From an uncultured Chloroflexia bacterium (GTDB taxonomy: Bacteria > Chloroflexota > Limnocylindria > Limnocylindrales > CSP1-4), in assembly GCA_963709605.1 (NCBI GenBank), contig CAVPWX010000020.1:401337-465336 (forward strand): a stretch of DNA of 64,000 nucleotides, given 5' to 3'. Shown one piece after another: positions 46,055-62,913 of this stretch. Numbering within the stretch: the stretch's first letter is position 1; the number at the start of each line of letters is the position of its first letter. Under the pieces are notes generated by a model. The model made no database searches. It was not told where the DNA came from and saw only the letters and a list, made by a program, of their open reading frames with translations. Made by a program: the position numbers and the translations under genes.

Positions 46055-46071
46055 GCGGGAGGAGAGAGCAC

Positions 46072-46827: not shown

Positions 46828-47258
46828 CGGGGGCCGCGCGGGTGCTGGTCGTCTGCACCGGCAACGCCGCGCGGAGCCAGATGGCCGAGGCGTTCCTCTC
46901 CCGCGAGGGGGTCGCCGCGGCATCGGCCGGGACGCACCCGGCCGGCGTCCACCCGCTCACCGTCGCCGTCCTCGCCGAGGTCGGCATCGACTGGTCCGGG
47001 GCCCATTCCAAGGGGATCGGCGAGATGCTCGACGGGCCCTGGGACCTCGTCCTGACCGTCTGCGACGATGCCCGCGAGGCGTGCCCCGTCGTGCCCGGGG
47101 CACGGCGGACCGCCCACGAGGGGTTCCCGGACCCGGCCGCGGCGACGGGCACCGAGGAGGATCGGCTCGCCGCGTTCCGGGCCGCCCGCGACGCGATCGC
47201 CGCCCGGATGACGACCCTCGCGGCGGACCTCCGCGCCGAACGGGAACCCGCCGGATGA
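46824..47258 (+). CDS. arsC: Arsenate reductase, thioredoxin-coupled LMW-PTP family (or LMW protein-tyrosine phosphatase)
   Basis: CTGNAARSQMAE P-loop, and a Cys-X7-Cys pair (TVCDDAREACP) as in ArsC Cys82/Cys89. It lacks the DPYY motif. The GTG overlaps the phoU stop (GTGA). Confidence 0.65.
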   Translation: MTGAARVLVVCTGNAARSQMAEAFLSREGVAAASAGTHPAGVHPLTVAVLAEVGIDWSGAHSKGIGEMLDGPWDLVLTVCDDAREACPVVPGARRTAHEGFPDPAAATGTEEDRLAAFRAARDAIAARMTTLAADLRAEREPAG

Positions 47259-47752
47259 GCCGCGACCTGCCGGGTCTCGTCGAGCTCTGCCTCCTGCGCC
47301 ACGCCCACGCGGGCGACAGCACCACGTGGGAGGAGGCCGACGAGCTGCGCCCCCTGACCGAGAAGGGCCGGCGCCAGGCGGAGCGCCTCGCCCGGCAACT
47401 GGCGGGGGCCGGCTTCGCCCCGGACGTCGTCCTGGCCTCGCCGCTCGTCCGCGCGCGCGAGACGGCCGAGATCGTGGCCGAGATCCTCCGGGCTCCCCTG
47501 CGGATCGATCCCCGGCTCGGCGAGATGCTCGACATGGCTTCCGTCGAGGAGATGCTCGCCGACGCCGGCGATCCGCGGCGCCCGGTGCTCGTCGGGCACG
47601 ACCCCGACTTCTCCGAGCTGGCCTCGGAGCTCGTCGGGGCGCCGATCGCCATGCGCAAGGGAACCCTCGCCCGGATCGACGTCGAACGCCCGCTCGAGCC
47701 CGGCGGCGGCGAGCTGCGCTGGCTCCTGCCCCCGGACCTGCTCAGGGGCTAG
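47255..47752 (+). CDS. Histidine phosphatase superfamily protein (SixA-like phosphohistidine phosphatase)
   Basis: LRHAHA (RHG motif) and a downstream H. The ATG overlaps the arsC stop (ATGA). Confidence 0.6.
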   Translation: MSRDLPGLVELCLLRHAHAGDSTTWEEADELRPLTEKGRRQAERLARQLAGAGFAPDVVLASPLVRARETAEIVAEILRAPLRIDPRLGEMLDMASVEEMLADAGDPRRPVLVGHDPDFSELASELVGAPIAMRKGTLARIDVERPLEPGGGELRWLLPPDLLRG

Positions 47753-47778: not shown

Positions 47779-48147
47779 TCAGCAGCCGGCCGGCGCCGCG
47801 AGGTTCCCGTAATCGGTGCCCAGGGCGGCACTCACCTCCAGGGCGACCGCGGGCAGGTAGGTCTTCACCTCGTTGGTGGCCCGCAGGTGGGCCATGATCA
47901 CGTCGTTGGCCCGCACCGCCGCCTGGCACAGGCGGAGCCGGTCGACCTGCTCCTGGCTCGGGGCAAGGCCCGACTGCTGGACGCGCGCCACGCTGCCCTG
48001 CTGCTCGCGGAGATCGGCCATCAAGCCTTGCGCCGCTGGGTCGTTCTCGAAGGCCTCGGCGGCGGCGCGGGAGGCGGCGACGGCGGGTGCCTGCAGGAGG
48101 GCCCGGCCGAACGCGACGGCCGCATCCTGGAGCTCTGTGCTGAGCAT
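47779..48147 (-). CDS. YlbF/YmcA-like (UPF0342) helical protein ending in Cys
   Basis: 122 aa, helical, C-terminus ...LAAPAGC. RBS GGGGAG. Confidence 0.4.
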   Translation of the reverse strand: MLSTELQDAAVAFGRALLQAPAVAASRAAAEAFENDPAAQGLMADLREQQGSVARVQQSGLAPSQEQVDRLRLCQAAVRANDVIMAHLRATNEVKTYLPAVALEVSAALGTDYGNLAAPAGC

Positions 48148-48159
48148 CGTGTTCTCCCC

Positions 48160-48585
48160 TCAGCCGCAGCAGCCGCCGGCGGAGCGGCAGTTGGCGGCGA
48201 AGTCGATCCCGATCTGGGCGCTGACGACCGCGGCCGTCTCGCGACACACGCTCTGGAACGCGGCCGTGGCCGCGACGTACGCCGTGACGGACGGGACCGC
48301 GTACGTGGCCTGCTGGAGGCGCTCCAGCTCAACGCGCTGGGCATCGGGGAGGACCCCCATCATCAGCTCCACGCGGAGCTCGGCCTGGCGCAACTGGAAT
48401 GCCTCGATCGCCGATGTCGCGGCGGGATCCTTCGAGAGCGCCCGGTCGGCCGCCATGAGGGCGGTGAACTCGGGGCTGGCGCGGAGGGTCGCACCGAAGG
48501 CGCCGGCCGCCGAGAGCGCCTCGGCCTCCGCCGCCCGGGTGGCGGCCGCGCGATCGGCCGGGTCGAGTGTCGTTGGGTGGAGCAT
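48160..48585 (-). CDS. YlbF/YmcA-like (UPF0342) helical protein with a Cys-rich tail
   Basis: 141 aa, C-terminus ...ANCRSAGGCCG. RBS GGAGG. A paralog of the gene downstream. Confidence 0.4.
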   Translation of the reverse strand: MLHPTTLDPADRAAATRAAEAEALSAAGAFGATLRASPEFTALMAADRALSKDPAATSAIEAFQLRQAELRVELMMGVLPDAQRVELERLQQATYAVPSVTAYVAATAAFQSVCRETAAVVSAQIGIDFAANCRSAGGCCG

Positions 48586-48601
48586 CGGGTCAGGCCTCCG
48601 T

Positions 48602-50471
48602 TCAGGCGACGAGCGCGGTGGGGGCGAGGGTTCGCTCGAGGAGCTCGGTCAGCCGGTCGAGGCCCATGACCTCGCCGTCGAGCAGGGGCACCTCGAGGAC
48701 CGGGACCGAGAAGCGCTGCTCGATGTCGGCGAGGTATGACTGCTGCATGTTCCAGCGCGCCCGCGAGTACGGCGTCTGCAGGGCATCGTCGGGCAGGACC
48801 ATGTTGGCGACGACGAGTCCCAACGGGATCCCGAGCGATTCCAGCTCGGCGATGGCGCGCGTTGCCTCGACGATCGGCGTTGCCTCCGGGTACATCACGA
48901 AGGCGAACGTGCTCTCGGCCGGGTCGCGCATCATCTCGATGACCCGGCTGAACTGGGCCTTCGCGACGTCGTCGGCGGCGGCCGTGTCGACCGAGGCGAA
49001 GACCTTGATGTCGATCTGGCGGCTCCAGTCGATGGGGAGCTCGAGCAGCCGCAGGGTGTGGCCCGTCGGCGCCGTGTCGAAGACGGTGACGTCGAACGCG
49101 TCGCGGCTGGCCAGCTCGATGAACTGGTCGAACGCCGCCATCTCCTCGGTGCACGGCGAGTCGAGCTCCTCGCGCATCGCGGCGATCGAGGCCGGGCTCC
49201 GGCCGCGCGCGACCGCGTCGGCAATGATCCGATCGGTGTAGGCGATGGCCGCGGCCTTGGCGTCGACGCGGGCCGCCCAGAGGCCGTCCACGCCGTCCAC
49301 CGGCGCGGGCTCCGTCCCGACCGTCGCGCCGAGGACCTGCCCGATGTGGGCCGCGGGATCGGTCGTCACCAGGAGGGTGCGATGACCCTGGCGCGCCGAC
49401 CAGAGGGCGGTGGCGCAGGACGCGACCGTCTTGCCGACGCCGCCCTTGCCGGCAAAGAAGATCGTCCGAGGGCTCCCGTTCGGCAGGAGCGCCGCCGCCA
49501 CGGCCGCCTCGTCGTCGCGCGTCGCCCGCGTCGACCCGCGGTCCGCATGGCCGAAGGCCGGCCTCGTGGCGTGCTCGTCGGCGAGGAGCGGGACCAGGGC
49601 CCGCAGCCGCGCGATCCCGCGGACCTCGCCGTCGAGGAGCGGGACGCGCCGGGTCGGCATCGGCAGCTGGCGCGCGATCTCGGCGAGGTAGCGCTCCTGC
49701 ATCGCGATGCGGGCAGCGAAGAACGGGGTCGAGGCCTCCTCGGCGGGCAGGATCCCGTTGACGATGAGCTCCGTCGTGACGATCCCGAGGCGGGCCAGCT
49801 CGGCGCCGGCGCGCCGCGTCTCGGCGATCGCGGTCGCCTCTGGATGGAGCACGAACGCGAACCGTGTCAGCGACTGGTCGCGCAGCGCGGCAAGTGCCCG
49901 CTCGTACTTGACCTTCGCCTCGGCGATGGCCGCCGCGGGGCCGATGCACGTCTGGCCGGCGCCCGCGTCGGCCTGCGAGATGCTCTTCGACCACGCCTCG
50001 GGCAGCTCGAGCAGGCGCACCGTGTGGCCGGTCGGCGCCGTGTCGAAGATCACCAGGTCGAAGCCGGGCGCCGGTGGGCGGCGCTGCGGGGGCCGGCGCC
50101 GTCGGGTCGAGGAAGTCGGCGAACCGATCGAAGGCTGCGACCTCCGCGGTGCAGGGCCCGGCGAGCTGCTCCTCCATGACCCGCACGATCTCCGGCGGGA
50201 AGATCTCGCGGATCGGGGCGAGCGTCCGGTCGGTGTACTCGGCAGTCGCACGGTCGGGGTCGATCTCCATCGCCGACAGGCTCGGCACGCCCACGATCCG
50301 GGTGATCGCGTGGCCGATGGGCTGCTCGAACACGTCCGCGAGGTTGGATGCCGGGTCCGTCGTCACGATCAGGACGCGCGTGCCGGCATCGGCCTCCGCG
50401 ACCGCGGTCGTGCAGGCCATCGTCGTCTTGCCGACGCCGCCCTTGCCGGAGAAGAAGAGGAACTGGGTCAC
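48602..50471 (-). CDS. arsA: Arsenite-stimulated ATPase ArsA (apparent frameshift near 50100)
   Basis: Two halves, each with a P-loop (GKGGVGKTT, GKGGVGKTV) and the DTAPTGHT signature. Cys are present at the expected metalloid-site positions (GPCTAEVAAFDRF, GQTCIGP, SPCTEEMAAFDQF). Confidence 0.8.
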
Positions 50472-50498
50472 CGCGGATCCTTTCGGGAGCGCTGCGGC

Positions 50499-50834
50499 TC
50501 AGGCGTTGCTGGTGAGCTCGGCGCGGAGCTCGTCGAGGGTTGGGTAGGCGTCGGTCTTCACGATGCGTCCGCCCATCACGGTGATCGGCAGGACCTCGAG
50601 CTGGCGCTCCTTGATCAGCTGGTAGACCTCGCGGTTGCGCATGAAGGCCTGGGGGTCCGCGGTCATCATGTGGCGGACCACCGTCCTGCCCTCGGCCTCG
50701 AGCGTGAAGACCGCCTCGCTCAGGTCGACGAGCGTCGTATCGAGCACGGGACCGCAAAGCCCCGTCGGGCAGCAGAGCGGCGGGTCGAAGATCTCGACGT
50801 CGGGGGTCGCGGGGCCGGACAGCTGATCACTCAT
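50499..50834 (-). CDS. arsD: Arsenical resistance operon metallochaperone/repressor ArsD
   Basis: MSDQLSG...IFDPPLCCPTGLCGP N-terminal vicinal Cys motif and a thioredoxin-like fold. 111 aa. Confidence 0.75.
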   Translation of the reverse strand: MSDQLSGPATPDVEIFDPPLCCPTGLCGPVLDTTLVDLSEAVFTLEAEGRTVVRHMMTADPQAFMRNREVYQLIKERQLEVLPITVMGGRIVKTDAYPTLDELRAELTSNA

Positions 50835-51102
50835 GGGACGCTTGCTCCTGTGGGTGGCGGAGTGGAGCCGGGGCGGCCGGCTGGGTGAGCACGAGAGGAT
50901 CGACCGGTGAACGTGCCGCGGCCCGGGCGGCGTCAGCCGCGCTCCTGCCGCGGACCAGGTCACGGATGCGGTTGAACGCCAGCTCGAGGAGGGGCGTCTC
51001 GAAGAAGGGCCCGCAGGCACCTCCCGGGCAGCACGTCGGCTCAGCGAGTAGGTCGGTATCGGTCGCTCGGGGGTTGTCGGTCGCGTCATGCATGTAGAGC
51101 AT
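50827..51102 (-). CDS. ArsD-like N-terminal paralog (truncated or degraded)
   Basis: Contains TCCPGGACGP and LELAFNRIRDL, but the C-terminal half does not resemble ArsD. It overlaps the arsD start. Confidence 0.45.
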   Translation of the reverse strand: MLYMHDATDNPRATDTDLLAEPTCCPGGACGPFFETPLLELAFNRIRDLVRGRSAADAARAAARSPVDPLVLTQPAAPAPLRHPQEQASHE

Positions 51103-51403
51103 CCGACTGCAGAGCCTCGGCGACGGCGCGCTCGATGGCGGAGACGTTGAGCTTCCCGCCGCTGAAGCGGCGGATCCCGTCGATCATCACGACCGGCGGA
51201 ACGGCCTCGCCGGCCGCGATCGCCGCCTCGACGTCCGGGTGTCGGGCCATCTCGGGACCGAAGAGCTCGGCGTACTCGAAGGCGACGGCCGGCCCGAACC
51301 GCTCGGCGAGGCGCCGCTCGACGAACGCCGCGGCCGCCCGCCACGTCTTCCCGGGGTCGCAGGCTGCCATGGGCACCCCTACCACGACGACCGTGCTGGT
51401 CAT
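51086..51403 (-). CDS. Small thioredoxin-fold-like protein (possibly YuzD/DUF1462-like), hypothetical
   Basis: MTSTVVVVGVPMAACDPGKTW...; weak pattern similarity to DUF1462 disulfide oxidoreductases. The ATG overlaps the arsR stop. Confidence 0.35.
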   Translation of the reverse strand: MTSTVVVVGVPMAACDPGKTWRAAAAFVERRLAERFGPAVAFEYAELFGPEMARHPDVEAAIAAGEAVPPVVMIDGIRRFSGGKLNVSAIERAVAEALQSDALHA

Positions 51404-51825
51404 CGCGAGACCTCCGCGGCCAGTGGCAGGCGCGACAGTGGCGACGGCTCGAGACCCGTCGTACTGCGGGAGCCGCAGTCGGTGCACAGGCAGGCCGTGG
51501 CCGCGTCGGTGGTGGGAGTGAGGAGATCGACGACCGCGGCCCGCAGCGCCTCGACCCGCTCGACGTCGAGGGAGTAGAAGACCCAGCGGCCGCTCCGCCG
51601 CTCGCGGAGCAGGCCAACGCCCCGCAGCGTCCGAAGGTGGTGCGAGACGAGTGCCGTGCTCATGCCGAGCGCGTCGCCGACGTCGCAGACGCAGTGCTCT
51701 CCGTGGGCGAGGAGGGCCACGATGCGGGCACGGTTCGGCTCCGCGACCGCCTGCAGGACGGCGAGCTGATCGTGCGCCAGAGGGAGTGCGATCCCGTGCG
51801 CGGGGTGGGCTTTCATGGCTCCCAT
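51400..51825 (-). CDS. arsR: ArsR/SmtB family As(III)-responsive repressor
   Basis: HTH plus the GEHCVCDV metal site, like ELCVCDL in R773 ArsR. A C-terminal extension carries CLCTDC. Confidence 0.75.
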   Translation of the reverse strand: MGAMKAHPAHGIALPLAHDQLAVLQAVAEPNRARIVALLAHGEHCVCDVGDALGMSTALVSHHLRTLRGVGLLRERRSGRWVFYSLDVERVEALRAAVVDLLTPTTDAATACLCTDCGSRSTTGLEPSPLSRLPLAAEVSR

Positions 51826-51850
51826 TCTAACAACTGTTAGACCAACGTGT
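51826..51850. promoter_or_regulatory. ArsR-type operator candidate, ATTCTAAC-aact-GTTAGACCAAC (TCTAAC-N4-GTTAGA palindrome), abutting the arsR start
   Basis: Read directly. AT-rich. Near-identical to the site at 52907-52930. Confidence 0.5.
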
Positions 51851-51861
51851 GTTTGACGGAA

Positions 51862-52083
51862 TCATCCGCAGCATCCGGGCCCGCGATCCGGACCGCAGGC
51901 GAGCGAGGATGGGCGCCTGGCCTGGTGGACGATCGTCGCGAACGTCAGCCGCTGCCGGGCTTCCCGGCTCCCACATGCGGGGCATGTCGGTACCAGTCCG
52001 CCTTCGCGCTCGGCGATCGAGGCGCGAACCTCGAAGGCCTCGCCACAGCGTCGGCATTCGTAGTCGTACAGGGGCACGGTCAC
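51862..52083 (-). CDS. FmdB-family zinc-ribbon protein with an extra C-terminal Cys tail
   Basis: PLYDYECRRCGEAFEV...CPACGS, then ...ACGPDRGPGCCG. Confidence 0.5.
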   Translation of the reverse strand: MTVPLYDYECRRCGEAFEVRASIAEREGGLVPTCPACGSREARQRLTFATIVHQARRPSSLACGPDRGPGCCG

Positions 52084-52153
52084 ACTCCTCCCCGCCGCCG
52101 GACGCATGGCGCGTCATCCTCGCGGCGGATTCCGCTCCGCCCGTCGCGTGCTC

Positions 52154-52843
52154 TCACGTGCTGACCACCATGAACGCCTCCGCCAGGCGCCCGTTCGGGA
52201 GCCCGCCCTCGGCGGCCAGGTCGACCAGGCGGGCAGTGACGCTGCGCTCCAGGTCGGTCATCTGGTCGGTCTGGCTGTGGTGCTCGCGCAGTGCCGCAAG
52301 CCTCCGATCGATGGTGCCGGTGACGTCCACCCAGTGGTTGGGCGTCGGCGCGCCGAAAAGCCAGGCCTCGGGCACCTCCCACTCGACGAGGCCCTCGTGC
52401 CGGGCGAGGGTCGGGTGCGCCAGGGGGTTGCGGGCGTCGGGGTAGATCGCGGCGATCGACGCCTCACCCGCGGCGATGTGGTCGGGGTGAAGCTCGCAGA
52501 TGCGACGCCAGTTGCGCTCGGGCGAGTGAATGAGCATGCGCTGCGGTCGCACCTGGCGGATGACCCGGGTGATGTCGCGGCGCAGCTCCATGGTGGCGAC
52601 CAGCTCTCCGTCACGATAGCCGAGGAAGCGCACGTCGCGGACGCCGAGGACGGCGGCGGCCGCCACCTGCTCCCGCCGCCGCCGGGCAGCCACGTCGGCA
52701 CGGGTGGCGGCACGATCGACGCCGCCGGCGTCGCCGTCGGTGATGACGCAGTAGGTGACCGCGATGCCGGCGTCCGTCAGCAACGCCACCGTCCCGCCGG
52801 CGCTGAAGTCGACGTCGTCGGGGTGCGCGGCGACGACGAGCAC
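52154..52843 (-). CDS. PIG-L/LmbE-family N-acetylglucosaminyl deacetylase (MshB/Mca-like)
   Basis: VLVVAAHPDDVDF and PIG-L fold motifs. GTG start at 52843. Confidence 0.7.
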   Translation of the reverse strand: MLVVAAHPDDVDFSAGGTVALLTDAGIAVTYCVITDGDAGGVDRAATRADVAARRRREQVAAAAVLGVRDVRFLGYRDGELVATMELRRDITRVIRQVRPQRMLIHSPERNWRRICELHPDHIAAGEASIAAIYPDARNPLAHPTLARHEGLVEWEVPEAWLFGAPTPNHWVDVTGTIDRRLAALREHHSQTDQMTDLERSVTARLVDLAAEGGLPNGRLAEAFMVVST

Positions 52844-52906
52844 GCGCTCGATCGAGCCCGGATTTCAGCATGGCAGGGCGGTCCCACGCGACGAGTGGTG
52901 GTCCAT

Positions 52907-52930
52907 GACGTTTATTCTAACCAAGGTTAG
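52907..52930. promoter_or_regulatory. Second ArsR-type operator candidate, ATTCTAAC-caag-GTTAGTACAAC, upstream of the PIG-L gene
   Basis: Read directly. 19 of 23 positions match the site at 51826-51850. Confidence 0.45.
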
Positions 52931-52961
52931 TACAACATGAGTTTGAGAACTTCGGCCCCTT

Positions 52962-52981
52962 GCCCGGGGCCGAACGGCCCG
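52962..52981. terminator. GC-rich hairpin CGGCCCC-ttgcc-CGGGGCCG immediately after the truncated acr3 ORF
   Basis: Read directly. There is no U-tract, which is common for actinobacterial terminators. Confidence 0.3.
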
Positions 52982-52992
52982 TACCCCGCTCC

Positions 52993-53262
52993 TCACCGTC
53001 GCCAGGCCGCGCCCGATCGCACGGCACGCAGCGTGCTCGCCGACACGACCGTCCAGGCGACGGCCTCGAAGCGGACGTTGACCATCATCGGGTAGATGAT
53101 CATGAAGACCGCGGCCGTCGTGACGCCGCCGAGGAGCCCGGCCTGGCTCGTCGCGAACCCGGCAAGCGCGTTCCCGGCCAGCAGGCCGACCACGATGGCC
53201 AGGCTCACGTAGGCCAGCATCCAGCGGTTGAGATGCTCCTGGAGGGAGCGGATCCGGGTCAT
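52993..53262 (-). pseudogene. N-terminal fragment (about 85 aa) of an ACR3-family arsenite efflux permease, terminated by a stop. The remaining roughly 270 codons are absent.
   Basis: MTRIRSLQEHLNRWMLAYVSLAIVVGLL...MIIYPMMVNVRFEAV resembles the ACR3 N-terminus (...MYPPLAKVRYEEL). No continuation in any frame; the PIG-L gene follows. Confidence 0.55.
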
Positions 53263-53650
53263 CGCGCTGCGGCCGGCGTCGCCGTCACCGTGGCCCCGCT
53301 GATCCGTTCGCGGAACACATCGTGCCCGGGCTGGCTGGGGCGGGTCGGACATGGTGCGCCTTCTTCGTTGTCGTCCGTGTGGGGGATGGGCCGGCTCGTG
53401 CTCGGTCCATTTATCTCACCGTGAACTGTGTTATTATGCCCCAAGAGATCCCTCTGCCGTCGGTCACCTCGTTGGGTGCTGATCGGCCTACCGGAACAGG
53501 ACATGCGGGACGGACCCGGCGAGCACACCGCTGAGCTGAGCGGCTCGCCGGCACCGTCGATCGCTGGAGCGGCCGGGATCTCGTTCCAACGCCCAGGCCC
53601 AGCCTCCCTACCCGAGCCTCGCCGCCTCAGCGTTTCAGACAGGTGGCACG

Positions 53651-54689
53651 TCAGCCCGTCGATGCAGCCCGGTGCCCGGCGTGCCGCTCCGCCACGATCT
53701 CGGCCAGGATGCCGAGCGCGATGTCGGCCGGCGTGTGGCCCCCCAGGTCGAGCCCGACCGGGGCGTGGATCCGGGCCAGCTGGGCGTCGTCGAGCCCCGC
53801 CTCGCGCAGGCGCGCCAGCCGCTGGCCATGGGTCCGCCGGCTCCCGAGCGCGCCGACGTAGAAGGCGCCCCGCCGCAGGGCGGTGATGATCGCCGGGTCG
53901 TCGATCTTCGGGTCATGGGCCACGGCCACGACGTGGGCGGCCGCGTCGATGCCGGCCCGGTCGGCGAGCTCGTCGGCCCAGCCGAGCAGCAGCTGGTCGG
54001 CGTCGGGGAACCGCTCACGGGTCAGGAACGCGGCCCGGGGGTCCACCACGACCGTCTGCAGACCGATCGCGTGGGCCAGGCGGACCAGGTAGACGGCGAT
54101 CTCGCCGGCCCCCGCGATGATGAGGCGGGCGGCGGCGAGCATCTCGAGGAAGACGTCGCGCCCGCCGGCCCGGACGATGCGGGAGGCGCCGGCACGGAGG
54201 GCGTCCCGGGCAAGGTCCGCGAGCTCGGCGTCGGCCGCCACGTCGCCAAGAGAGCCGGAGCGGATCCCCGCCGGCGTCGAGGACGACACGCTCCACGTCG
54301 GCGGCCTGCCGACCAGCCGGGAGCGGGGTGGCGATCAGCAGCGCCCGGCCCTCCCCTGCCGCGTCGAGGACCACGTCGGGCAGGACCGGCTCGACGAGGA
54401 CGTCGATCTCGCCGCCGCAGGTGAGGCCCACCTCGGCGGCCCGCTCGTCGGTGACCCCGTAGCGCACCAGCTCGCGATAGCCGCCGCGCCGGGCAGCCTG
54501 GACGGCCTCCGCCGCGGCGCCCTCGACGCAGCCCGCGGAGACGCTCCCGGCAAGCCGGCCGTCGTCGGCGGCAAGGAGGGTGCTGCCGATCTCGAAGGGG
54601 GCCGACCCGACGGACCGGACGAGCGTCGCCCGGCCGAACCCCACCCCCTCGGCTCGCCAGCGAGCGCCGGTCGCCAGGACGTCCCTCAC
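53651..54689 (-). CDS. XdhC/CoxI-family accessory protein (apparent frameshift near 54270)
   Basis: XdhC N-terminal domain (ORF 54015..54689) and Rossmann-like C-terminal domain (ORF 53651..54289, LIIAGAGEIAVYLVRLA). Confidence 0.7.
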
Positions 54690-54726
54690 GGCGCCCCGGC
54701 GCTCGAGAAGGCCGCCCAGCCGGTGT

Positions 54727-55078
54727 TCATCGCGCGTTCTCCTCGGCGTCGAGCACCTCTAGCGCCCACCCGTAGGCGGCCACGCTGGCCGGGAATCCGG
54801 CGGTGGGGATCGCCAGCACGATCGCGTGGAGCAGCTCCTCCCGCGTCAGCCCCTCGGCGAGCCCGCGCCGCACGTGCGAGCGCACGGCGCCCTCCGACGC
54901 CAGGCCGATGGCGATGCCGAGCTTCACCAGGCGCTGCTCGCGGGCGCCCAGCGGCCCGGCCTCGCGAACGCGAGCGGCGAGGCCCTCGTACGCCTCGACC
55001 ACGTCGGGCAGGTCGCGCCGGACCTGCTGGTAGATGCGGGGCGTGTACCCCGGTTCCTTCGACCCGTCGTCCACCATC
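54727..55078 (-). CDS. Carboxymuconolactone decarboxylase (AhpD-like) family protein
   Basis: AhpD-like core pattern (EQRLVKLGIAIGLASEGAVRSHV). ATG at 55078 with a GGGAG RBS. Confidence 0.7.
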
Positions 55079-55179
55079 GTGTCTCCCTGGGATCCGGCCC
55101 CTCGCCGCCACGGCAGCGCCATGCGCGTCGACCACGATGGTACCGCGCACGCCGACCCGGCCGGTCGGGGCCGCGCAGT

Positions 55180-56710
55180 TCACGTGAGCGACGGAAACAG
55201 CGTCCGGTCGGTGTGCGGCAGGAAGAGCGCCGCCGTGTACTCGTCGAAGTAGCGCGGCTCGACGGTCAGCTCGAGGCAGGTGATCGACGAGGCGATCTCT
55301 CGCGCGCGCCGCCACGCCGCGCGCGAGAGAAGCGCTGCATGCGCGCCCGCCAACGAGCTGTTGCCGATGAACTGGATCCGCTCGCGCGGGATGTCGGGCA
55401 GGAGCCCGATCCGTACTGCCTGCTCGATCTCCAGCGATTGGCCGAAGTTGCCGGCGATGAAGACTCGCTCCACGTCAGCAAACGCCAGGCCCGCGTTCGC
55501 AAGCAAGATTTCGCGAACCCGCGTAGAGGGCGGCCTTGTCGCGAATGAGGTTCGCAATGTCGCCCTGCCGCAGCGCGATGTCGCGCCCGACGGCTGTCTC
55601 GTTCGCCGAAGCCAGAACGACCTCGGCGTATCCTTCGCGGCGACGCACGCTGGGCGCGGCGAGGTCGACCTTGCCGGCGCGGTCGATAGCGCCGACCTGG
55701 AGGAACGCGCCGAGCGCCTCGATGAGCCCAGAACCACAGATCCCCCGAGGCGGCTGGCCGCCAACGGTGGCATAGGCGAGACGACCATCGTCGGCCCAGA
55801 CGCGGTCGATCGCGCCGGGTAGCGCTGCCATCCCCCACTCGAGACCGCACCCCTCGAACGCGGAGCCAGCAGAACCTGAGCATGCCATCAGGAATTCGCG
55901 GTTGCCCAGTACCGTCTCGCCATTGGTGCCGATGTCGATCAGGATGGAAAGCGGTTCCTCGTCCGCGATCCGTGTCGAGAGCAGGCCGCCGGTTACGTCG
56001 CCGCCCACGTAGCCGCTCGCCGCCGGGAGGAGATAGAGCGGCGCGCCTTCGCCGACGTTCAATCCCACTTGGGCGACGTCGAGAACCGGAAACGCGGTGG
56101 CCGCCGGCACGTATGGCTCCCGGCGGATACTGCCGGGGTCGAGGCCAAGGAGCAGGTGCATCATGACGGTGTTGCCCGCCATGGCCACCGCCGCGATGTC
56201 GTCCTGGCCGACCCGCGCCTCGGCGCCCAGCGCCGCCACGAGCTCGTTCAGTGAGTCGAGAGCCGCCTGGCGCAGCGCTTCGAGCCCACCCGGTTCCTCG
56301 GCGTGCATCATCCGCGACGTGACGTCCATGCCGAAGATGCGCTGCCCGTTGTAGACGAGGTGAGATCCGAGGACCGCGCCCGATTCGATGTCGACCAGCT
56401 CTGCGACGACCATCGACGTGCCGAGGTCAACCGCGAGTCCCAGCGTGCGCGACGCTTCGCCGAGCGGTACGACGCGGACGACGCGCCACGTGTCGCCCAC
56501 ATCAGCCAGCGTCGCGTCGACCTGCCAGTCCCCGCGCCGCAGCGCTGGACCCAGGTCGCGCAGCACGGCCAGGGTCGGTTCAAGCGAACGGTCATCGAGC
56601 CGCGGCCGCAGCGTGCGCGCAACTCGTGCCCAGTCGCTCGTCGTATCGCTGAGCGAGGGTGGGTCGACCGTGAGAGACACCCGTTGCAGCAGAGCATCGT
56701 CCGCGCGCAT
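55180..56710 (-). CDS. ASKHA-fold DUF4445 protein (RACo-like putative corrinoid reductive activase without an N-terminal ferredoxin domain; apparent frameshift)
   Basis: LAVDLGTSMVVAEL, IDIGTNGETVLG and GICGSGLIEALG motifs match the RACo C-terminal ATPase. The C-terminus is in ORF 55180..55788. Confidence 0.55.
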
Positions 56711-56937
56711 CTGCATCTCCTTGGATCTCCGCGACACCCGCTCCGTCGTCATCGGGAGCCTGCAGTTGGCGTTCGCCATGGCGTCGTCGACCGCGCCGAC
56801 GCCCAATGCTGTCCGAGGCTTCTTGCCGGGCGCGCGGGACTGCGGCATCCTGAACCGTGGCGGGCGCTTCGCCGTTCGTGATCCTAACCCGTCATGGTGC
56901 GGCCGACCTGCGAGGACGACCAGAGGGGAGAGCGCAC

Positions 56938-57105
56938 GTGGAACCGAAACTCGTCATCACCCTGGACGCGGAGGACCTGCAGGAGCTCGAGCGGATCCTG
57001 ATCGACCGGGACGCCAAGGACGCCCTCAGGTTCCTGGATGAGCGCATCGCCAAGAAGGTGAAGGTCGCGAACAGCCCCCACTGCAAGCCGCCCTTCGACG
57101 GCTGA
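56938..57105 (+). CDS. Small hypothetical protein (55 aa)
   Basis: A GTG with a GAGGGGAG RBS, and a conserved-looking ...ITLDAEDLQELERILIDRDAKDALRFL. Speculative. Confidence 0.3.
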   Translation: MEPKLVITLDAEDLQELERILIDRDAKDALRFLDERIAKKVKVANSPHCKPPFDG

Positions 57106-57186
57106 GCTCGACAGGAGGCGAATGGCGCCCGGCTGTCGATCATCCAACGTCCCCGATGGCGTCGCCCGGCGGCGAACAGGAGACCC

Positions 57187-57921
57187 GTGGCTGAGATCAG
57201 GAAGGTCGATCCGGCGCCGGACTACCCGCCCGAGGAGGGCTGCTACCTCCGGGGCAACGACTACTCGCCCGTGGCGGTGCTAGTCATCCTGAAATGGATC
57301 CGGGAGGAGACTCCGCCCGAGATCGAGGCGCTCGTCCGGGTGGGCGTCGAGAGCGGGGCGGCCCTCTCGGGCACCCTCCAGACCGAGAACGTCGGGCTGG
57401 AGAAGGTCATCTGCAACGTGGTGGCCAACCCGAACATCCGCTACCTCGTCGTCTGCGGCCCCGAGTCGCCGGGGCACCACGTCGGCGAGACGATCCTCGC
57501 CCTGATGGCGAACGGCGTCGACCAGCGGAAGCGGATCGTGGGCACCAGCGCCCAGACGCCCTACCTGTTCAACATCCCGGTCGCGTCGATCGAGCGGTTC
57601 CGTCGCCAGGTCACGGTGATCGACCTGATCCACGAAGGGCGGCCGGAGGTGATCCGCGAGGCCGTCGCGGCCTGCTACCAGGAAGAGCCGACGCCCTTCC
57701 GCGATCGCCTCCTGCACGATCCCGGCGCCTGGCCGGATCCGCCCATCAGCGGCCGGATCACCTGGCGCGTCACCGACCCGACGAGGGAACCCAAGAGCGA
57801 GGAGGAGCGGGCCGGGCAGGAACGGATCCGGGCGCTGATCGACCGCGCCAGGAAGGCCGCCGAAGCGAGGCACGGCGGCCCCCCGGACCCGTCGGGGGGC
57901 GAAGCCGGCTCGCCGGGCTAG
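57187..57921 (+). CDS. MtrA-like protein (homolog of tetrahydromethanopterin S-methyltransferase subunit A, cobamide-binding fold), soluble
   Basis: TENVGLEKVICNVVANPNIRYLVVCGPESPGHHVGET is closely similar to the MtrA core (TENLGIEK...NPNIRFLVVCG.E..GH). Confidence 0.55.
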   Translation: MAEIRKVDPAPDYPPEEGCYLRGNDYSPVAVLVILKWIREETPPEIEALVRVGVESGAALSGTLQTENVGLEKVICNVVANPNIRYLVVCGPESPGHHVGETILALMANGVDQRKRIVGTSAQTPYLFNIPVASIERFRRQVTVIDLIHEGRPEVIREAVAACYQEEPTPFRDRLLHDPGAWPDPPISGRITWRVTDPTREPKSEEERAGQERIRALIDRARKAAEARHGGPPDPSGGEAGSPG

Positions 57922-58001
57922 GCGGAATCCTCGAGCCGGAGAGCCTCGTGGTCAGCGCCCTGGTCCAACGGCCGACCGATGCCGCGGGCCTCCGCCCCTG
58001 A

Positions 58002-58256
58002 CTACTCGTCCAACCAGACGGCGATGTTGCCGGCCGAGGGGATCCGTCCCGCGCTCACCACCTTGCCGTCGATCACGAGGCCCGGGGTCGACAGCACGCC
58101 ATAGGCGGCGATCTGGGCGTGGTCGGTCACCTTGACGATCTCGGCTTCGACGCCGGCCATCATGACCGCCTCGCGGGCGTTCGCCTCGAGCTGCTTGCAG
58201 TTGTCGCAGCCGGGACCAAGAACCTCGATTCTCGTCAAGTGAAGGCCTCCATCCAT
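58002..58256 (-). CDS. Small thioredoxin-fold redox-active disulfide protein (TIGR00412-like)
   Basis: 84 aa with a GPGCDNCK CxxC motif. Confidence 0.7.
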   Translation of the reverse strand: MDGGLHLTRIEVLGPGCDNCKQLEANAREAVMMAGVEAEIVKVTDHAQIAAYGVLSTPGLVIDGKVVSAGRIPSAGNIAVWLDE

Positions 58257-58318
58257 GGCGCGCCGGGCGCGCCGTTCTCAGCGGTGGGACATGGCCGCCG
58301 GGCGGGCGGCGCGCATGG

Positions 58319-58648
58319 TCACGCGAGGATCTCCCCGAGCGCCTCGAGCGCCCGCCGGCAGGCGGCGGCGTCGCGCTCGTAGTAGACCCGCCGGGTATCG
58401 GCGCCGACGCGGCTGGCGCGCACCAGCCCGGCGTCGCGGAGGCGGGCGAGGTGGTTGCTCACGTTGTTCTGCTGGGCGCCGAGGGCGGCGGCCATCTCGC
58501 AGACGCAGACGGGCCCGTCGCGGAGCATCCGCACGATGCTGGCCCGGTTCGGGTCGGCAAGGAGCGCGGCGGCCGCCGTGGCATCGCTCACGTCGGGCGC
58601 CGGGAGGTTCATTCGCAGGTCCTGGAGGACCGGCAGCTCAATCGGCAT
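58319..58648 (-). CDS. arsR: ArsR/SmtB family metalloid-responsive repressor
   Basis: HTH with the GPVCVCEM metal-binding site. Confidence 0.8.
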   Translation of the reverse strand: MPIELPVLQDLRMNLPAPDVSDATAAAALLADPNRASIVRMLRDGPVCVCEMAAALGAQQNNVSNHLARLRDAGLVRASRVGADTRRVYYERDAAACRRALEALGEILA

Positions 58649-58693
58649 CGGAGGTCTCCTCTGGCGTGCCGTTCATGGACGTGGCGATCGTTG

Positions 58694-59449
58694 TCATGTC
58701 AGGAGGATCCAGGCGCGCTGGATCGCGAGCGCCACGAGGGCGACGGCGAAGATCCGGGACAGGGTCTGGCTCTTCACCCAGCCGGCCGTGAAGCGAGCGC
58801 CGAGCCAGGCCCCGATGACCGCGGCGATCGAGGTGACGATCACCGTCGGCCAGTCGAAGGTCGCGGTCGGGAGGTGGGTGGCGAAAGCCGAGAAGGACGG
58901 CAGCGTCACCGCGACGGAGTTCGTGGCAGCGGCCAGGCGGGCGGAATAGCCGACCAGGGTGAGCGTCGGCATGAGCAGGAACCCGGGGCCCACGCCGAGA
59001 AACCCGGCGAAGACGGAGATCGGCACGGCCGCGCCGGCGGCCTTCGCCCTGTTGCGGTCGGTGATCTCGGCGACCACCTCGGTCGAGGCGCCCTTCGGCA
59101 GCGCCATCCGGACGGCGAGGAAGAGCAGCACACCGACGTAGAGCCACCAGACGATGTCGACGGTGGCGAACTGGAGGAGCCAGACGCCGAGCGGCGCCCC
59201 GATCGTGGTGATCGTCACCAGGATGAGCGCACCGCGCTTGTCGACCATGCCCTTGCGCCAGAAGGCGATCGCGGCGCTGATCGCGGTCAACCCGTTGAGC
59301 AGCAGCGCCCAGGGCTGGATCTCGTTGATGAGGTCGTAGCCGAACAGCCCCAGGACGGGGATGGCGATGAAGGCGACGCCGAGGCCGAGCATCCCCGACA
59401 GGAACGACAGGCCGAACAGCAGCGGCGTCAGGAGCAGCAGCATCTCCAC
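58694..59449 (-). CDS. TauE/SafE (DUF81) family anion exporter
   Basis: 251 aa, 7-8 TM segments, GMLGLGVAFIAIP and GFLGVGPGFLLMP motifs. Confidence 0.8.
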   Translation of the reverse strand: MEMLLLLTPLLFGLSFLSGMLGLGVAFIAIPVLGLFGYDLINEIQPWALLLNGLTAISAAIAFWRKGMVDKRGALILVTITTIGAPLGVWLLQFATVDIVWWLYVGVLLFLAVRMALPKGASTEVVAEITDRNRAKAAGAAVPISVFAGFLGVGPGFLLMPTLTLVGYSARLAAATNSVAVTLPSFSAFATHLPTATFDWPTVIVTSIAAVIGAWLGARFTAGWVKSQTLSRIFAVALVALAIQRAWILLT

Positions 59450-59453
59450 GGGA

Positions 59454-59906
59454 TCAGGCCACGATCTCGAACGTCGGCTCGACGACGATCTCGGACTTCA
59501 CGGAGTTGGCGACGAGGCTGAATCTCTGCGCCGACTTCAACGCCCGGCGGGCGCGGGCCTCGACGACGGCCGGCTGCTCCGCCCCGGCGCGGATGACGAT
59601 CCGCGGCCACAGCCGCAGGTAGGTGAAGGTCTCGGTCCGGTCGAGCTCGATGAGCTTGGTTCCCTCGGCCCTGCAGTCGTACGACTGCAGGTCGAGCCGG
59701 AACCGCTCGGTCGCCCAGATGAACATCATCATCACGCAGGTGTTCGCCGCGGCGACGAAGGCATCCTCGGGCGTCAGCACCCCGGGATGTCCCTGGGCAT
59801 CGGGTGGAGCCGAGAAGGGCATCTCCGGGCCGTTGCCCAAGGTGATCTGCCCCCAGTGCTCCCCCGTCCACGTCACCGTCGTGTGGTACGTCGCCCTGCG
59901 GCTCAC
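59454..59906 (-). CDS. OsmC/Ohr-family peroxiredoxin-like protein
   Basis: OsmC fold pattern with two Cys (...AANTCVMMMF... and ...DCRAEG...). The GTG overlaps the upstream stop (GTGA). Confidence 0.7.
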   Translation of the reverse strand: MSRRATYHTTVTWTGEHWGQITLGNGPEMPFSAPPDAQGHPGVLTPEDAFVAAANTCVMMMFIWATERFRLDLQSYDCRAEGTKLIELDRTETFTYLRLWPRIVIRAGAEQPAVVEARARRALKSAQRFSLVANSVKSEIVVEPTFEIVA

Positions 59907-60615
59907 GGCCGAGACCCCGTCGGGTGGCAGAAGGCGGCGTACTCGCGCGCGAGCGCGGCCGCGTACTCCTCGTCGGTCCCGGCCGGCACGTCGTTGTAGA
60001 TCTTCACGGTCTCGAGCAGCTCCTTCGCAACCTCCGCGCCGGGCGCCTTCCCCGCGCCGCGGAACTGCTCGAAGATCAGCGGCAGGGCCGCGAGGGGAAC
60101 CGGCCGTGCCGTCCACGTCCACGGTCTGCACCGGGATGGCAGACGCGCACGCACAGCCGGCCTGCGGCGCGGCCTCCACGAACGACCCGCGGCGCCGATC
60201 CCATCGCTCCCCGAGAAGCTCGTCGACGAGGCCGGCGACCCGGTCGGCGGTCACCTCGGCCGCCTGCCGGCCGGCGGCGTCCAGGCGGCGGGCGCCCCGG
60301 GGCCGGTCCAGGCCGTGCTCGGCCAGCAGATCGGTCACGACGACGCTCGCGGCTGGTTTGCCAGAGAACTGCTCGGTGGCCCGCGCCGCGCACCGCTTTT
60401 CGCAGCCGTCGACCGCGATCGTCGGGTAGAAACGGGCGAAGGCCCGGTCGCCTTCCCCGCCGGCCAGGAAGAGCGGCAGGCAGATGGTGACCGTGTCGTC
60501 GGGGCGGAGCTGCTCCAGCACCCTGCAGTGCGGCCAGGCGGGTCACCGTCCCCTCGGCCAGCTCCTCGCCGGAGCATGCGACGATCCCGACCTTGCGCTG
60601 CGGCAGCTCAGGCAT
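59903..60615 (-). CDS. DGC-domain (PF08859-like, Cys-rich putative Zn-binding) protein (apparent frameshifts)
   Basis: MPELPQRKVGIVACSGEE..., then ...ICLPLFLAGGEGD...YPTIAVDGCEKRCAAR..., in shifted frames. Confidence 0.45.
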
Positions 60616-61013
60616 GGTCGGATGCCTCCTCGCGGGAGACCAGGTCGTCGACGACGGTGGCGATCTCCTCGGCCACCGCATGGGCGAGCTGCTGTCCGCC
60701 CTCGTTCAGCTCGGCGATGCCCCGCGGCTTCAGCTCCCGGTTCCGCCGGTACACGTCGAGCACCGCGATGCCCTGGGCGACGTGCCCTCCGCTCTCCTCC
60801 ACCATCTTGGCGGCGCAGGCGAGCTTGCAGCCGTCGATCGTCACCGCCGGATGCGCCCTGACCGCGGCGCGGGCGTCCTCGTCACCCAGGACCAGGAGCG
60901 AGAGGGCCACGAGCCCCGTGGCCCCCGGCCGCAGAGTCCTCGGTGACCTCGTAGGCGGCCTCGCGGCTGACCGTGCCGTACGTCTTGCCGATGCCGCTGC
61001 AGGGCACGACCAT
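60608..61013 (-). CDS. DGC-domain protein (paralog; apparent frameshift near 60935)
   Basis: MVVPCSGIGKTYGTVSREAAYEV..., then ...AVTIDGCKLACAAKMVEESGG. Confidence 0.5.
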
Positions 61014-61033
61014 GACCTTGCGATCTTCGGGGC

Positions 61034-61483
61034 TCACGGCTTCTTCGCTTCCTCTTCAGCCTGGGCGCGCATGACCTCGAAGTACGCCTGCGGGTCCAGC
61101 AGGCGCTCGCGGTCGGCCGGCCAGTCGGAGGCCTCGATGACGGCGAGCCACCCTTCGCCGTACGGATCCTGGTTGATGGCCTCGGGGGACAGCTCCATCG
61201 CCGGGTTCACCTCGACGACCGTACCTCCGACGGGCGAGAGCACCTCCACGTTCGCCTTGATCGTCTCGATCGTCGCCACCTCGTCGCCGGCTGCCACGGC
61301 CGTGCCCTCCGCCTTGACCTCGGCGAAGGCGACGTCGCCATTGAGCTGCTGGAGGAAGTCCGTCATCCCGACACGGACCCGGTCGCCGTCCGCGAGGGCC
61401 CAGGCGCCCTCGGCGGTGTAGAGGCGATCGGTCGCGACCCGGAAGATGAACTTGTCGACCGTGGTCTCCAGGTAGTCGGGCAT
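61034..61483 (-). CDS. gcvH: Glycine-cleavage H-protein-like lipoyl carrier protein
   Basis: GcvH fold with a lipoyl-lysine context (ATIETIKANVEV). 149 aa with an acidic tail. Confidence 0.7.
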   Translation of the reverse strand: MPDYLETTVDKFIFRVATDRLYTAEGAWALADGDRVRVGMTDFLQQLNGDVAFAEVKAEGTAVAAGDEVATIETIKANVEVLSPVGGTVVEVNPAMELSPEAINQDPYGEGWLAVIEASDWPADRERLLDPQAYFEVMRAQAEEEAKKP

Positions 61484-61488
61484 GGGTT

Positions 61489-62913
61489 CTACCGCCTCTG
61501 AAAGTGGATGGTGGCGTCGCGGAAGCCGAGCGCTGCCTCCAGCATCGCCTCCGGCAACGTCGGATGGGCGTGCGTGGTCCAGGCGAGGTCGTCGGCCGTC
61601 GCTCCGACCTGGACCGCAAGAGCCCCCTCGGCGATGAGGTCGGTGGCGTGTGGGCCCAGGAGATGAACGCCCATCACCGTGCCGCTGCCCGCTTCGCACA
61701 CCAGCTTCACCAACCCATCCATCTCGCCGAGGATGCGTGCTCGGGGATTGGCTGAGAACGGGAACTGGGTGACCTTCACGTCTGCTCCCTGCCCTTGCGC
61801 CTGCGCCGCGGTCAGGCCGACGCTGGCCAGCTCGGGCCTCGTGAAGACGACACTTGGAACGGATCGGTAGTCCACGGTGCGACTGCCGCCGCATGCGTTC
61901 TCGGCCGCCATGCGCCCGTCGACCATGGCCTTGTGCGCCAGCATCGGACCGCCGATCGCGTCGCCGATCGCCCACACGTTGGGAACACTGGTCTCCAGGC
62001 GCTCGTTCACGGCGATCGCCCGACCGCTCATCGTCACGCCGACCTCGGCCAGGCCGAGACCATCGGTGTTCGGCCAGCGTCCCGTGGCGACGAGGACCCG
62101 ATCACCGTCGACTCGCGACGGAGCGCCTTTCGCGTCGCGATGGAACACCGCCAAGCCACTTCCGGCGGGCGCGATCTCCTCCACGTGGGCGCCGGTGATG
62201 ATGCCCATGCCCCGTCGCCGGAGCAGGAGCGCCAGGCGCTGGGCAATCCCCTCGTCGGTTGCGCCCGGCAGCAGGGTCGACATCATCTCCACGATGGTCA
62301 CGCGGCTGCCAAGGGCCTCGTAGATGCAGGCGAACTCGAGGCCGATGACACCCCCGCCGACCACGATCAGGCGGTCGGGGATCTCCGCGATGTCGAGCGC
62401 CTCGGTGCTGGTGATCACGCCGGGCAGGTCGAGGCCGGGGATCGGTGGCCGGGCGGGGATCGACCCCGGGGCCAGGATCACGCGCCTGGCCGACACGTTG
62501 ATCGCGTCGCCGGTGTCGGGCTGCACCCGGAGGGTGTCGGGCGCCGAAAGGTGGCCCGTGCCGCGCAGGAGGGTGACCCCCGACCTCTTCAGCAGGTGCT
62601 CGACCCCACCGACCAACGCGTCCACGGCTCCCTGCTTGTACGCCATGAGGGCGGGCGGGTCGGGCACGACCGTCGAGATGGCGAGGCCGAACTCGTGCGC
62701 ACGCCTCGCCTTCAGCAGCAGCTCTGTCGACGTGGTCAGGGCCTTGGTCGGGATGCAGCCGATGTTCAGGCAGGTGCCCCCTACCCGCTGGTTCTCGATG
62801 AGCACCGCGCTCGCGCCCAGCTGCGCTGCACGAAGCGCGGCCACGTAGCCGGCAGGACCACCACCCAAGACGGCCACGTCGAACCGGTCGTTCATCACAG
62901 TCGACAGTGTCAC
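61489..62913 (-). CDS. lpd: Dihydrolipoyl dehydrogenase (E3)
   Basis: FAD fold (VAVLGGGPAGYVAA), redox-active disulfide (GGTCLNIGCIPTK) and HAHPTLPEA interface motif. Confidence 0.8.
   Translation of the reverse strand: MTLSTVMNDRFDVAVLGGGPAGYVAALRAAQLGASAVLIENQRVGGTCLNIGCIPTKALTTSTELLLKARRAHEFGLAISTVVPDPPALMAYKQGAVDALVGGVEHLLKRSGVTLLRGTGHLSAPDTLRVQPDTGDAINVSARRVILAPGSIPARPPIPGLDLPGVITSTEALDIAEIPDRLIVVGGGVIGLEFACIYEALGSRVTIVEMMSTLLPGATDEGIAQRLALLLRRRGMGIITGAHVEEIAPAGSGLAVFHRDAKGAPSRVDGDRVLVATGRWPNTDGLGLAEVGVTMSGRAIAVNERLETSVPNVWAIGDAIGGPMLAHKAMVDGRMAAENACGGSRTVDYRSVPSVVFTRPELASVGLTAAQAQGQGADVKVTQFPFSANPRARILGEMDGLVKLVCEAGSGTVMGVHLLGPHATDLIAEGALAVQVGATADDLAWTTHAHPTLPEAMLEAALGFRDATIHFQRR

Follow-up and report, generated by a model that had tools for sequence, protein, structure and literature searches.

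A gene at positions 57187-57921 (plus strand) of a 64,000-nucleotide stretch from an uncultured Chloroflexia bacterium (contig CAVPWX010000020.1; hereafter, the window) encodes an MtrA-fold soluble protein that is a member of the MtrA family, the family of the cobamide-binding subunit of methanogen tetrahydromethanopterin S-methyltransferase. The MtrA-like gene is found regularly in the ars operons of uncultivated, mostly anaerobic bacteria, shows unusually high conservation and has so far escaped description. The tentatively preferred interpretation, which relies on conserved residues and gene context, is that its product may act as an ars-operon cobamide protein performing methyl transfer on arsenic, with a RACo-like ATPase, encoded divergently in the window, as a facultative reactivator; this is regarded as quite possible, and still short of probable.

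The protein is 244 residues long; residues 6-172 form the MtrA domain, and a C-terminal extension comes after it. The Pfam profile PF04208 matches it with E=2.5e-40 and 138.4 bits (cut-off 25) over positions 1-156 of 173, and the NCBIfam model NF002126 reaches 184.3 bits, above its cut-off of 161, while TIGR01111, the equivalog of true MtrA, gives 129.8 bits and stays below its cut-off of 249. When a profile of the MtrA-like family was compared with the PDB, the cytoplasmic MtrA homolog of M. fervidus (5LAA) was matched at E=6.6e-45. A Foldseek search with the AlphaFold2 model returned MtrA structures as the sole matches (E<=3e-10; TM-scores of 0.81-0.84 for soluble-domain structures). The homology to methanogen MtrA proposed in the first-pass annotation, which was made from the sequence alone, is thus borne out by profile searches whose scores lie far beyond chance, and the cobamide-ligating residues are intact. 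Its description of the protein as soluble and stand-alone is also supported, since no transmembrane helix is present (Kyte-Doolittle maximum of 1.09 in a 19-residue window). No mtr genes occur in the Pfam-annotated neighborhoods of MtrA-like genes, where the neighbors are ars genes. The C-terminal extension of about 70 residues, conserved throughout the family with an ITWRVTDPxREPK motif and a helix, replaces the membrane anchor, and a PDB sequence search with it gave no significant match. An 11-residue insertion after strand 1 is likewise specific to the family.

The residues that contact the cofactor were taken from the structure of 5LAA, which was solved with cobalamin (PMC4915002; Wagner et al. 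2016), and were transferred to the MtrA-like protein through a HMMER alignment. The axial cobalt ligand His84 corresponds to H97, and Glu54, which forms the hydrogen-bond relay, corresponds to E67. The contacts to the nucleotide tail, Thr53, Asn55, Gly57, Val61, Asn64 and Tyr18, map to T66, N68, G70, V74, N77 and Y20, respectively. The mapped positions are kept in 110-121 of 121 family members, as well as through the wider superfamily, with H97 and E67 present in all 121 sequences. The meander GAIPF(Y/F)xEN aligns to AxTPYLFN (A122-N129), in which the proline, the aromatic residue and the asparagine are retained and the glycine and the glutamate are lost. On the basis of these conserved cofactor contacts, the protein is predicted to bind a cobamide.

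The genomic setting of the family is highly consistent. Database searches gave 3,610 relatives, the best 120 of which are 67-96% identical and include sequences from Chloroflexota, Planctomycetota, Verrucomicrobiota and further phyla. Among GTDB species genomes, 147 stretches encode the MtrA-like protein, and 80 of the 147 loci were analyzed, all of them from metagenome-assembled genomes (MAGs). In 72 of the 77 informative loci, which span more than 10 phyla, ars-type genes lie within 5 kb of the MtrA-like gene, and 207 of the 221 neighboring ars-type genes are co-directional with it. Neighbor counts were obtained by tblastn with ars proteins over 81 MtrA-like loci: ArsR is found beside the gene in 58, the arsenite exporter ACR3 in 51, an ArsE-type thioredoxin (Trx3) in 44, an ArsP-type permease (PF03773) in 31, often directly upstream, and the low-molecular-weight phosphatase (LMWP) type of ArsC in 25, whereas XdhC and a CMD-family protein, both encoded opposite the gene in the window, are each found in 1 and RACo in none. 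Where the MtrA-like gene touches or overlaps another gene, that gene is mostly one for a transporter. The loci from a metagenome scan based on the RACo alignment served only as a negative control: the back-translated motifs were too general, so that 78 of the 80 loci contained generic RACo genes (38-46% identity), and these 78 gave no MtrA-like gene and an ars-like gene of any kind in only 2. The arsenic context that the first-pass annotation had suspected is much stronger than could be seen from a single stretch of DNA.

Representative Pfam-annotated loci illustrate this arrangement. In L001, the MtrA-like gene adjoins an operon of the order ArsR-ArsP-Trx-...-ACR3-ArsC; in L172, the order is ArsM-like-ArsN-like-ACR3-MtrA-like, with overlaps between genes; in L173, the order is PhoU-ArsC-small ORF-MtrA-like-His_Phos_1. 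The MtrA-like protein is also found fused to ArsC (P0105), and relatives of it are fused to TusA (P0246) and to a 2x[4Fe-4S] ferredoxin (P0248). Across phyla, its median identity amounts to 64.5%, compared with 28-44% for the adjoining ars genes, in a set of loci chosen by MtrA-like similarity. The family is horizontally mobile and under tight conservation, and the ars operon is the place where it ordinarily resides. No description of MtrA-like or DUF4445 proteins in ars operons was found in the literature; the articles retrieved that pair the name MtrA with ars genes concern an unrelated decaheme cytochrome or a response regulator. As a separate observation, a distant clade of MtrA domains (40-51% identity; P0271, P0280, P0286, P0290, P0295 and P0301) is fused to a thymidylate-synthase-like domain, has mostly Ala in place of Glu54 and is unrelated to the arsenic context.

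The candidate activase of the window is a RACo/AcsV-like ASKHA ATPase encoded at 55180-56806 on the minus strand, with a likely start at 56716 (MQMRADD) or 56806. It contains the RACo_linker, Raco_middle and RACo_C_ter domains (PF17650, PF17651 and PF14574), and the names AcsV and RamA are among its NCBIfam matches. The AcsV profile is matched over positions 111-632 only, with 345.6 and 121.9 bits over two reading frames, below the curated cut-off of 800, and PF00111 finds no N-terminal [2Fe-2S] domain. The protein was accordingly described correctly from the outset as a RACo-type ATPase that lacks the [2Fe-2S] domain. It belongs to a ferredoxin-less subfamily of about 508 residues, comprising approximately 100 clusters at 60-99% identity; relatives at 52% identity or less possess the ferredoxin domain. 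The ASKHA motifs DxGTT and DIGTNGE are invariant in the subfamily alignment A2. All inspected loci of this subfamily are arsenic islands, and one member is fused to ArsC (P0219). RACo-type ATPases are known to act only on corrinoid proteins.

Taking these elements together, the following mechanism can be proposed. H97 and the E67 relay would hold the corrinoid in the base-off/His-on state and leave its ring exposed at the surface, and the protein would cycle between Co(I) and methyl-Co(III), thereby moving a methyl group from or to arsenic. The favored direction is an O2-independent demethylation, in which Co(I) would take the methyl group from monomethyl- or dimethylarsenicals (MAs or DMAs) and the released As(III) would be exported by the adjacent ACR3, so that the MtrA-like protein would fill, under anaerobic conditions, the role of ArsI, a C-As lyase that requires O2. 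Demethylation is favored because ACR3 is the commonest exporter among the neighbors, because some loci already contain a gene for an S-adenosylmethionine (SAM)-dependent ArsM-like enzyme, because the hosts are anaerobes unable to use O2-dependent ArsI, and because no anaerobic demethylase is known. In lineages that have it, the ferredoxin-less RACo-like ATPase would use ATP to re-reduce the corrinoid after inactivation to Co(II). Since its own [2Fe-2S] domain is missing, the electrons would have to come from separate carriers. Candidate carriers are encoded by the genes that usually come after RACo, namely those for the ComYlbF-type proteins and the flavoprotein; the Fe-S electron input absent from the ATPase might be provided by the ComYlbF pair. 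We infer the arsenic chemistry, its direction and the action of the ATPase on the MtrA-like protein. In its most specific form, the proposal makes the MtrA-like protein the corrinoid carrier of an O2-independent arsenic methyl-transfer pathway, most attractively the missing anaerobic methylarsenical demethylase, with a ComYlbF-fed RACo in some lineages; stated at this level of detail, it is rather doubtful. For the anaerobic demethylation of arsenic, no enzyme is known, and the process is at present ascribed, rather loosely, to corrinoid methyltransferases, notably those of methanogens (bioRxiv 10.64898/2026.08.27.747368).

Several observations weigh against this interpretation. No MtrH-, MetH- or MtaA-like methyltransferase is found in any Pfam-annotated neighborhood, so that the catalytic methyl cycle is incomplete on paper. 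A cobalamin riboswitch is absent, as Rfam gave no matches at gathering thresholds over the whole 64-kb window, and no genes for B12 synthesis or uptake were recognized among the approximately 45 ORFs scanned, which is a weak objection considering that 64 kb is a small sample of the genome; the search for both, suggested in the first-pass annotation, thus came back empty. The AlphaFold2 model is of moderate quality (predicted local distance difference test, pLDDT, of 66), with values below 50 for residues 1-28, including C19. This cysteine and C76, both specific to the family and located at the tail pocket, could indicate As(III) binding in place of the cobamide tail. The RACo gene is near the MtrA-like gene in 0 of the 80 genome loci and in 3 of the 9 loci of the closest clade (>=80% identity), being absent from the other 6; in one of these contigs, L170, whose MtrA-like protein is 96% identical to that of the window, XdhC-CMD is divergent from small ORF-MtrA-like and RACo is cleanly missing. 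Moreover, the RACo and XdhC genes are frameshifted in this assembly. Finally, the SAM-dependent ArsM-like gene of some loci speaks against a role in methylation and is neutral for a demethylase.

This last point bears on the opposite direction of transfer, i.e., that the protein is a cobamide-dependent arsenite methylase, in which methyl-Co(III) would methylate As(III) and the ArsP-type permease would export the methylarsenite formed. The chemistry itself, of which the protein would host an enzyme-bound form, is established, as arsenite is methylated by methylcobalamin and thiols without an enzyme, and also by the corrinoid methyltransferases of methanogens; the frequency of the ArsP-type permease, found in more than a third of the loci and often immediately upstream, would fit such a function. 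However, ACR3, an exporter of As(III), is the commoner neighbor, several loci are already equipped with the SAM-dependent ArsM-like enzyme, and no methyl-loading system is encoded nearby. Consequently, methylation by the MtrA-like protein is considered quite unlikely.

The two cysteines suggest a further alternative, in which the protein is an As(III)/thiol chaperone that does not use a cobamide: C19, C76 and C163 would bind As(III) or MAs(III) and hand it to ACR3 or to the ArsP-type permease, with no methyl transfer taking place. ArsD, which serves ArsA, is the model for such a role. C19 is present in 121 of 121 family members and C76 in 119 of 121, where they replace Asp17 and Ala63, respectively, and flank the pocket of the nucleotide tail. 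The frequent contact or overlap with a transporter gene, the lack of a methyltransferase partner nearby and the lack of an activase in most loci agree with this alternative. On the other hand, the cobalamin contacts, the His-Glu relay among them, are conserved to a degree that is difficult to account for if the cofactor is not used, and the existence of a ferredoxin-fused relative together with the adjacency to RACo points to low-potential redox chemistry. Furthermore, C19 is lost in relatives at 50-59% identity that share the same C-terminal extension, and little weight is placed on this residue for that reason. A pure chaperone function is therefore judged unlikely.

The relationship between the MtrA-like protein and the ATPase deserves closer inspection, because the first-pass annotation regarded the former as paired with its own activase. 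In that form, the pairing finds no support in the locus counts given above, in contig L170 or in the most constant neighbors of the RACo subfamily, which are ArsD-ArsA-ArsC upstream and two ComYlbF proteins downstream; in 7 of 10 independent loci this set, with the ComYlbF pair immediately downstream, is found with no MtrA-like gene within 10 kb. The usual module consists of ArsR, ArsD, ArsA, a PIG-L, CMD or DsrE protein, ArsC, a protein of about 90 aa, RACo, ComYlbF, a second ComYlbF (TSCPD), a flavoprotein (PF02441), Zn_ribbon_8 and a protein of about 100 aa, and the loci that carry it without an MtrA-like gene at this distance are L084/L085, L086, L166, L167, L168 and L169. The upstream side of this module often encodes, in addition, a small Fe-S protein (PF04060), a protein resembling GDE_C and XdhC. 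The difference between L170 and the window is a clean presence/absence of the RACo gene (1.65 kb) between CMD and the small ORF (L170 3993-4055 vs window 55163-56809) in otherwise collinear loci that are 92-93% identical.

These data are accommodated if RACo, CMD and XdhC are cargo of the island and belong to another arsenic-island module with another target, and the MtrA-like protein needs no dedicated activase. The two genes would then be neighbors in the window solely through the shuffling of both within mobile arsenic islands. The window itself bears signs of such a rearrangement, since the ComYlbF pair has been left behind ArsA (47782-48498) and RACo lies elsewhere. In contrast, no substrate other than corrinoid proteins is known for RACo-type ATPases, and these islands show a single protein of corrinoid type, the MtrA-like protein. 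Three independent arrangements also join the two genes. They are divergent in the window and in L171, a contig that is 98.2% identical to the window over 3 kb and carries an intact RACo homolog (P0121; 99% identity). In L082 they are in tandem, in the order XdhC-Trx3-small ORF-MtrA-like-RACo on one strand, with RACo directly downstream of the MtrA-like gene after a gap of 115 bp. In L083 they are about 0.9 kb apart. The cargo explanation is a real possibility, if not a probable one. Taking into account the adjacency in L082 and L083 and the specificity of both families for arsenic islands, a facultative partnership between the MtrA-like protein and RACo is plausible.

The interruptions of the divergent operon have to be considered in the same context. 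One additional A at about 55510 (AA to AAA) divides RACo between two frames (55475-56848 and 55180-55788), and one additional G at about 54266 (GGG to GGGG) does the same to XdhC (54015-54689 and 53651-54289). If these shifts were real, both genes would be interrupted, the operon would be dead and its contents would say nothing about function. However, both are +1 homopolymer extensions relative to short-read contigs at 92-98% identity, namely L171 (98.2% identical) and L170 (92.6% identical), both free of these interruptions. At least six single-base frameshifts occur within 13 kb of the window (48600-61040), the others being located in ArsA (about 50062-50106), in a DGC/OsmC gene (about 59826-59838 and about 60524-60538) and in a second DGC gene (about 60934-60939). 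Similar fragmentation is seen in related long-read-style contigs, for Aldedh in L082 and for ArsA in L167. The frequency of these shifts, the homopolymer nature of the two that were mapped and the intact state of closely related contigs indicate that the shifts are probably indel errors of a long-read assembly and not marks of pseudogenes, which makes genuine decay of the locus improbable. As a consequence, gene calls based on ORFs are unreliable in this window.

Three further proteins accompany the MtrA-like gene in the window and may be regarded as clade-specific accessories. The first is a 55-aa ORF at 56938-57105 (plus strand), ending in HCKPPFDG, which has its own ribosome-binding site, GAGGGGAGAG, upstream of a GTG start. 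Its homologs are 63-98% identical, are 50-69 aa long (mostly 54-55) and form 17 clusters in 5.8 billion proteins, in agreement with the initial claim that a conserved small ORF precedes the MtrA-like gene. It accompanies that gene wherever contigs can be matched, and matches to its profile hidden Markov model lie upstream of the MtrA-like gene in about 14 loci. Neither Pfam nor the PDB gave a match to it. The small ORF is an accessory of the MtrA-like gene restricted to one clade.

The second is a CMD-family protein with an AhpD fold (131 aa; 54727-55122, minus strand; PF02627, E=1.7e-13), whose start is probably at 55077, because its homologs are 115-116 aa long. Homologs of it occur in L170, L171, L083 and L168. 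The protein contains no cysteine and hence no AhpD CxxC, and is not an AhpD-type peroxidase; its earlier designation as AhpD-like is valid for the fold and not for the redox motif. The third is an XdhC-type cofactor-insertion chaperone at 53651-54689 (minus strand), in which both XdhC_CoxI and XdhC_C domains are recognized, as initially proposed, and of which an intact homolog of 345 aa is present in L170. The annotated part of the window contains no molybdoenzyme that could be its partner. Such enzymes are encoded in other arsenic islands: L083 (5845-10541) encodes an Arr/Arx/Psr-like molybdopterin oxidoreductase together with NrfD and a 4Fe-4S subunit, and in L167 (662-5637) the gene for an XDH/CODH-family enzyme immediately precedes XdhC. 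It is probably such enzymes that XdhC serves, in which case it would be orphaned in the window.

The window has a G+C content of about 73%. Its left two thirds contain housekeeping genes (argC/argJ, gltB, amt, mdh, ppk, ppx and pst), and the arsenic island extends from about 46 kb to the right end. Convergent with the MtrA-like gene, and identified with Pfam and NCBIfam, are the minus-strand genes for an ArsE/MTH895-type thioredoxin-like protein (58002-58256) and an ArsR regulator (58319-58648). Elsewhere, these two kinds of gene are the neighbors that the family has most frequently. In the window they belong to an apparent minus-strand operon (58002-62913) that also encodes an Lpd-like pyridine-nucleotide disulfide oxidoreductase (61489-62913), the lipoyl carrier GcvH (about 61034-61420), two DGC-domain proteins, one of them with an OsmC domain, and a TauE/SafE permease; together they constitute a thiol/lipoyl redox set under ArsR. 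Both L002 and L082 contain the TauE-ArsR-Trx3 and DGC genes as well.

On the other side of the divergent operon, comparison with annotated loci by tblastn placed, all on the minus strand, PIG-L at 52154-52843, Zn_ribbon_8 at 51862-52107, a second ArsR at 51400-51825, a conserved protein of about 100 aa at 51086-51487, ArsD at 50499-50840 and the frameshifted ArsA at 48602-50471, while Pfam identified the two ComYlbF proteins at 48166-48498 and 47782-48144. The genes of 47782-52843 correspond to the set that flanks the RACo-like gene in L084, L166, L167 and L168, scattered in the window. Between PIG-L and XdhC lies an ORF of 119 aa (52993-53352, minus strand) with a hydrophobic C-terminal half and no Pfam match, which may be the remnant of a membrane protein gene. 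No recognizable ACR3 or ArsB is present in the window, and tblastn gave no ACR3 match, the 119-aa ORF included. Searched for an ArsR operator, the divergent intergenic region (56717-56937) showed only short GC-rich palindromes. Finally, the order Ppx-PstSCAB-PhoU-ArsC(LMWP)-His_Phos_1 is shared between the window (40597-47503) and L173 (2266-11318); in L173 the small ORF and the MtrA-like gene are placed between ArsC and His_Phos_1, and in the window this pair has been relocated to a distance of 10 kb. The His_Phos_1 superfamily, to which CobC (alpha-ribazole phosphatase) and the phosphoglycerate mutases belong, recurs just downstream of the MtrA-like gene in L083 and L173.

Comparison with known systems helps to define what is new here. 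With MtrA and its cytoplasmic homologs (5LAA), the MtrA-like protein shares the Rossmann-type cobamide domain at about 37-50% identity over some 165 residues, the same His-on ligand, Glu relay and tail contacts and, with the cytoplasmic homologs, its solubility. In contrast to MtrA, which is encoded with mtrB-H or mtx genes and has a juxtamembrane and transmembrane segment, it is bacterial, resides in ars operons and carries the extension of about 70 residues, to which the 11-residue insertion, C19/C76 and the altered meander are added. The RACo-like ATPase has the same linker, middle and ASKHA domains as RACo/AcsV, the activator of the corrinoid iron-sulfur protein (CFeSP), and stands beside a corrinoid-type gene in three loci; unlike RACo/AcsV, it has no [2Fe-2S] domain, is confined to arsenic islands and is usually followed by the two ComYlbF proteins, the flavoprotein and the Zn-ribbon protein.

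The nearest conceptual precedent is HgcAB, which methylates Hg(II). In both cases a corrinoid-type protein of anaerobes is directed at a toxic metal or metalloid, a role that is here proposed for the MtrA-like protein, and the ferredoxin-fused relative recalls HgcB. HgcA differs in being CFeSP-like and Cys-on with a membrane domain, whereas the MtrA-like protein has the MtrA fold, is predicted to be His-on, is soluble and lies inside ars operons. One preprint reports that hgcAB is controlled by an ArsR-like regulator and proposes a link to arsenic (bioRxiv 10.1101/2022.10.17.512643). With respect to ArsI, the place in ars operons beside exporters of As(III) or organoarsenicals is comparable, the demethylase role of the MtrA-like protein being hypothetical; in sequence and fold it is unrelated to ArsI, a dioxygenase that depends on Fe(II) and O2. 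Corrinoid proteins and their activases are thus known kinds of proteins, and the novelty consists in the placement of a corrinoid-type protein, with or without an activase, in ars operons.

How toxic and how mobile arsenic is in paddy soils, sediments and groundwater depends on its methylation and demethylation. The MtrA-like protein is a concrete, testable candidate for B12-dependent arsenic chemistry, because it is a B12-type protein fixed in ars operons, is encoded in 147 or more genomes at species level, has about 3,600 database relatives, surpasses the adjoining transporters in conservation and is everywhere annotated as a subunit of methanogenesis. Should this candidate hold, the RACo-centered gene set would define an undescribed second arsenic-island module, and the current database name of the protein, "tetrahydromethanopterin S-methyltransferase subunit A", would have to be corrected, so that its occurrence in bacterial MAGs would not be taken as evidence of methanogenesis or methanopterin metabolism. 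If the proposed function is true, the gene would provide a marker for metagenomic surveys, and it would reveal a B12-dependent branch of the arsenic cycle together with a new class of ars genes.

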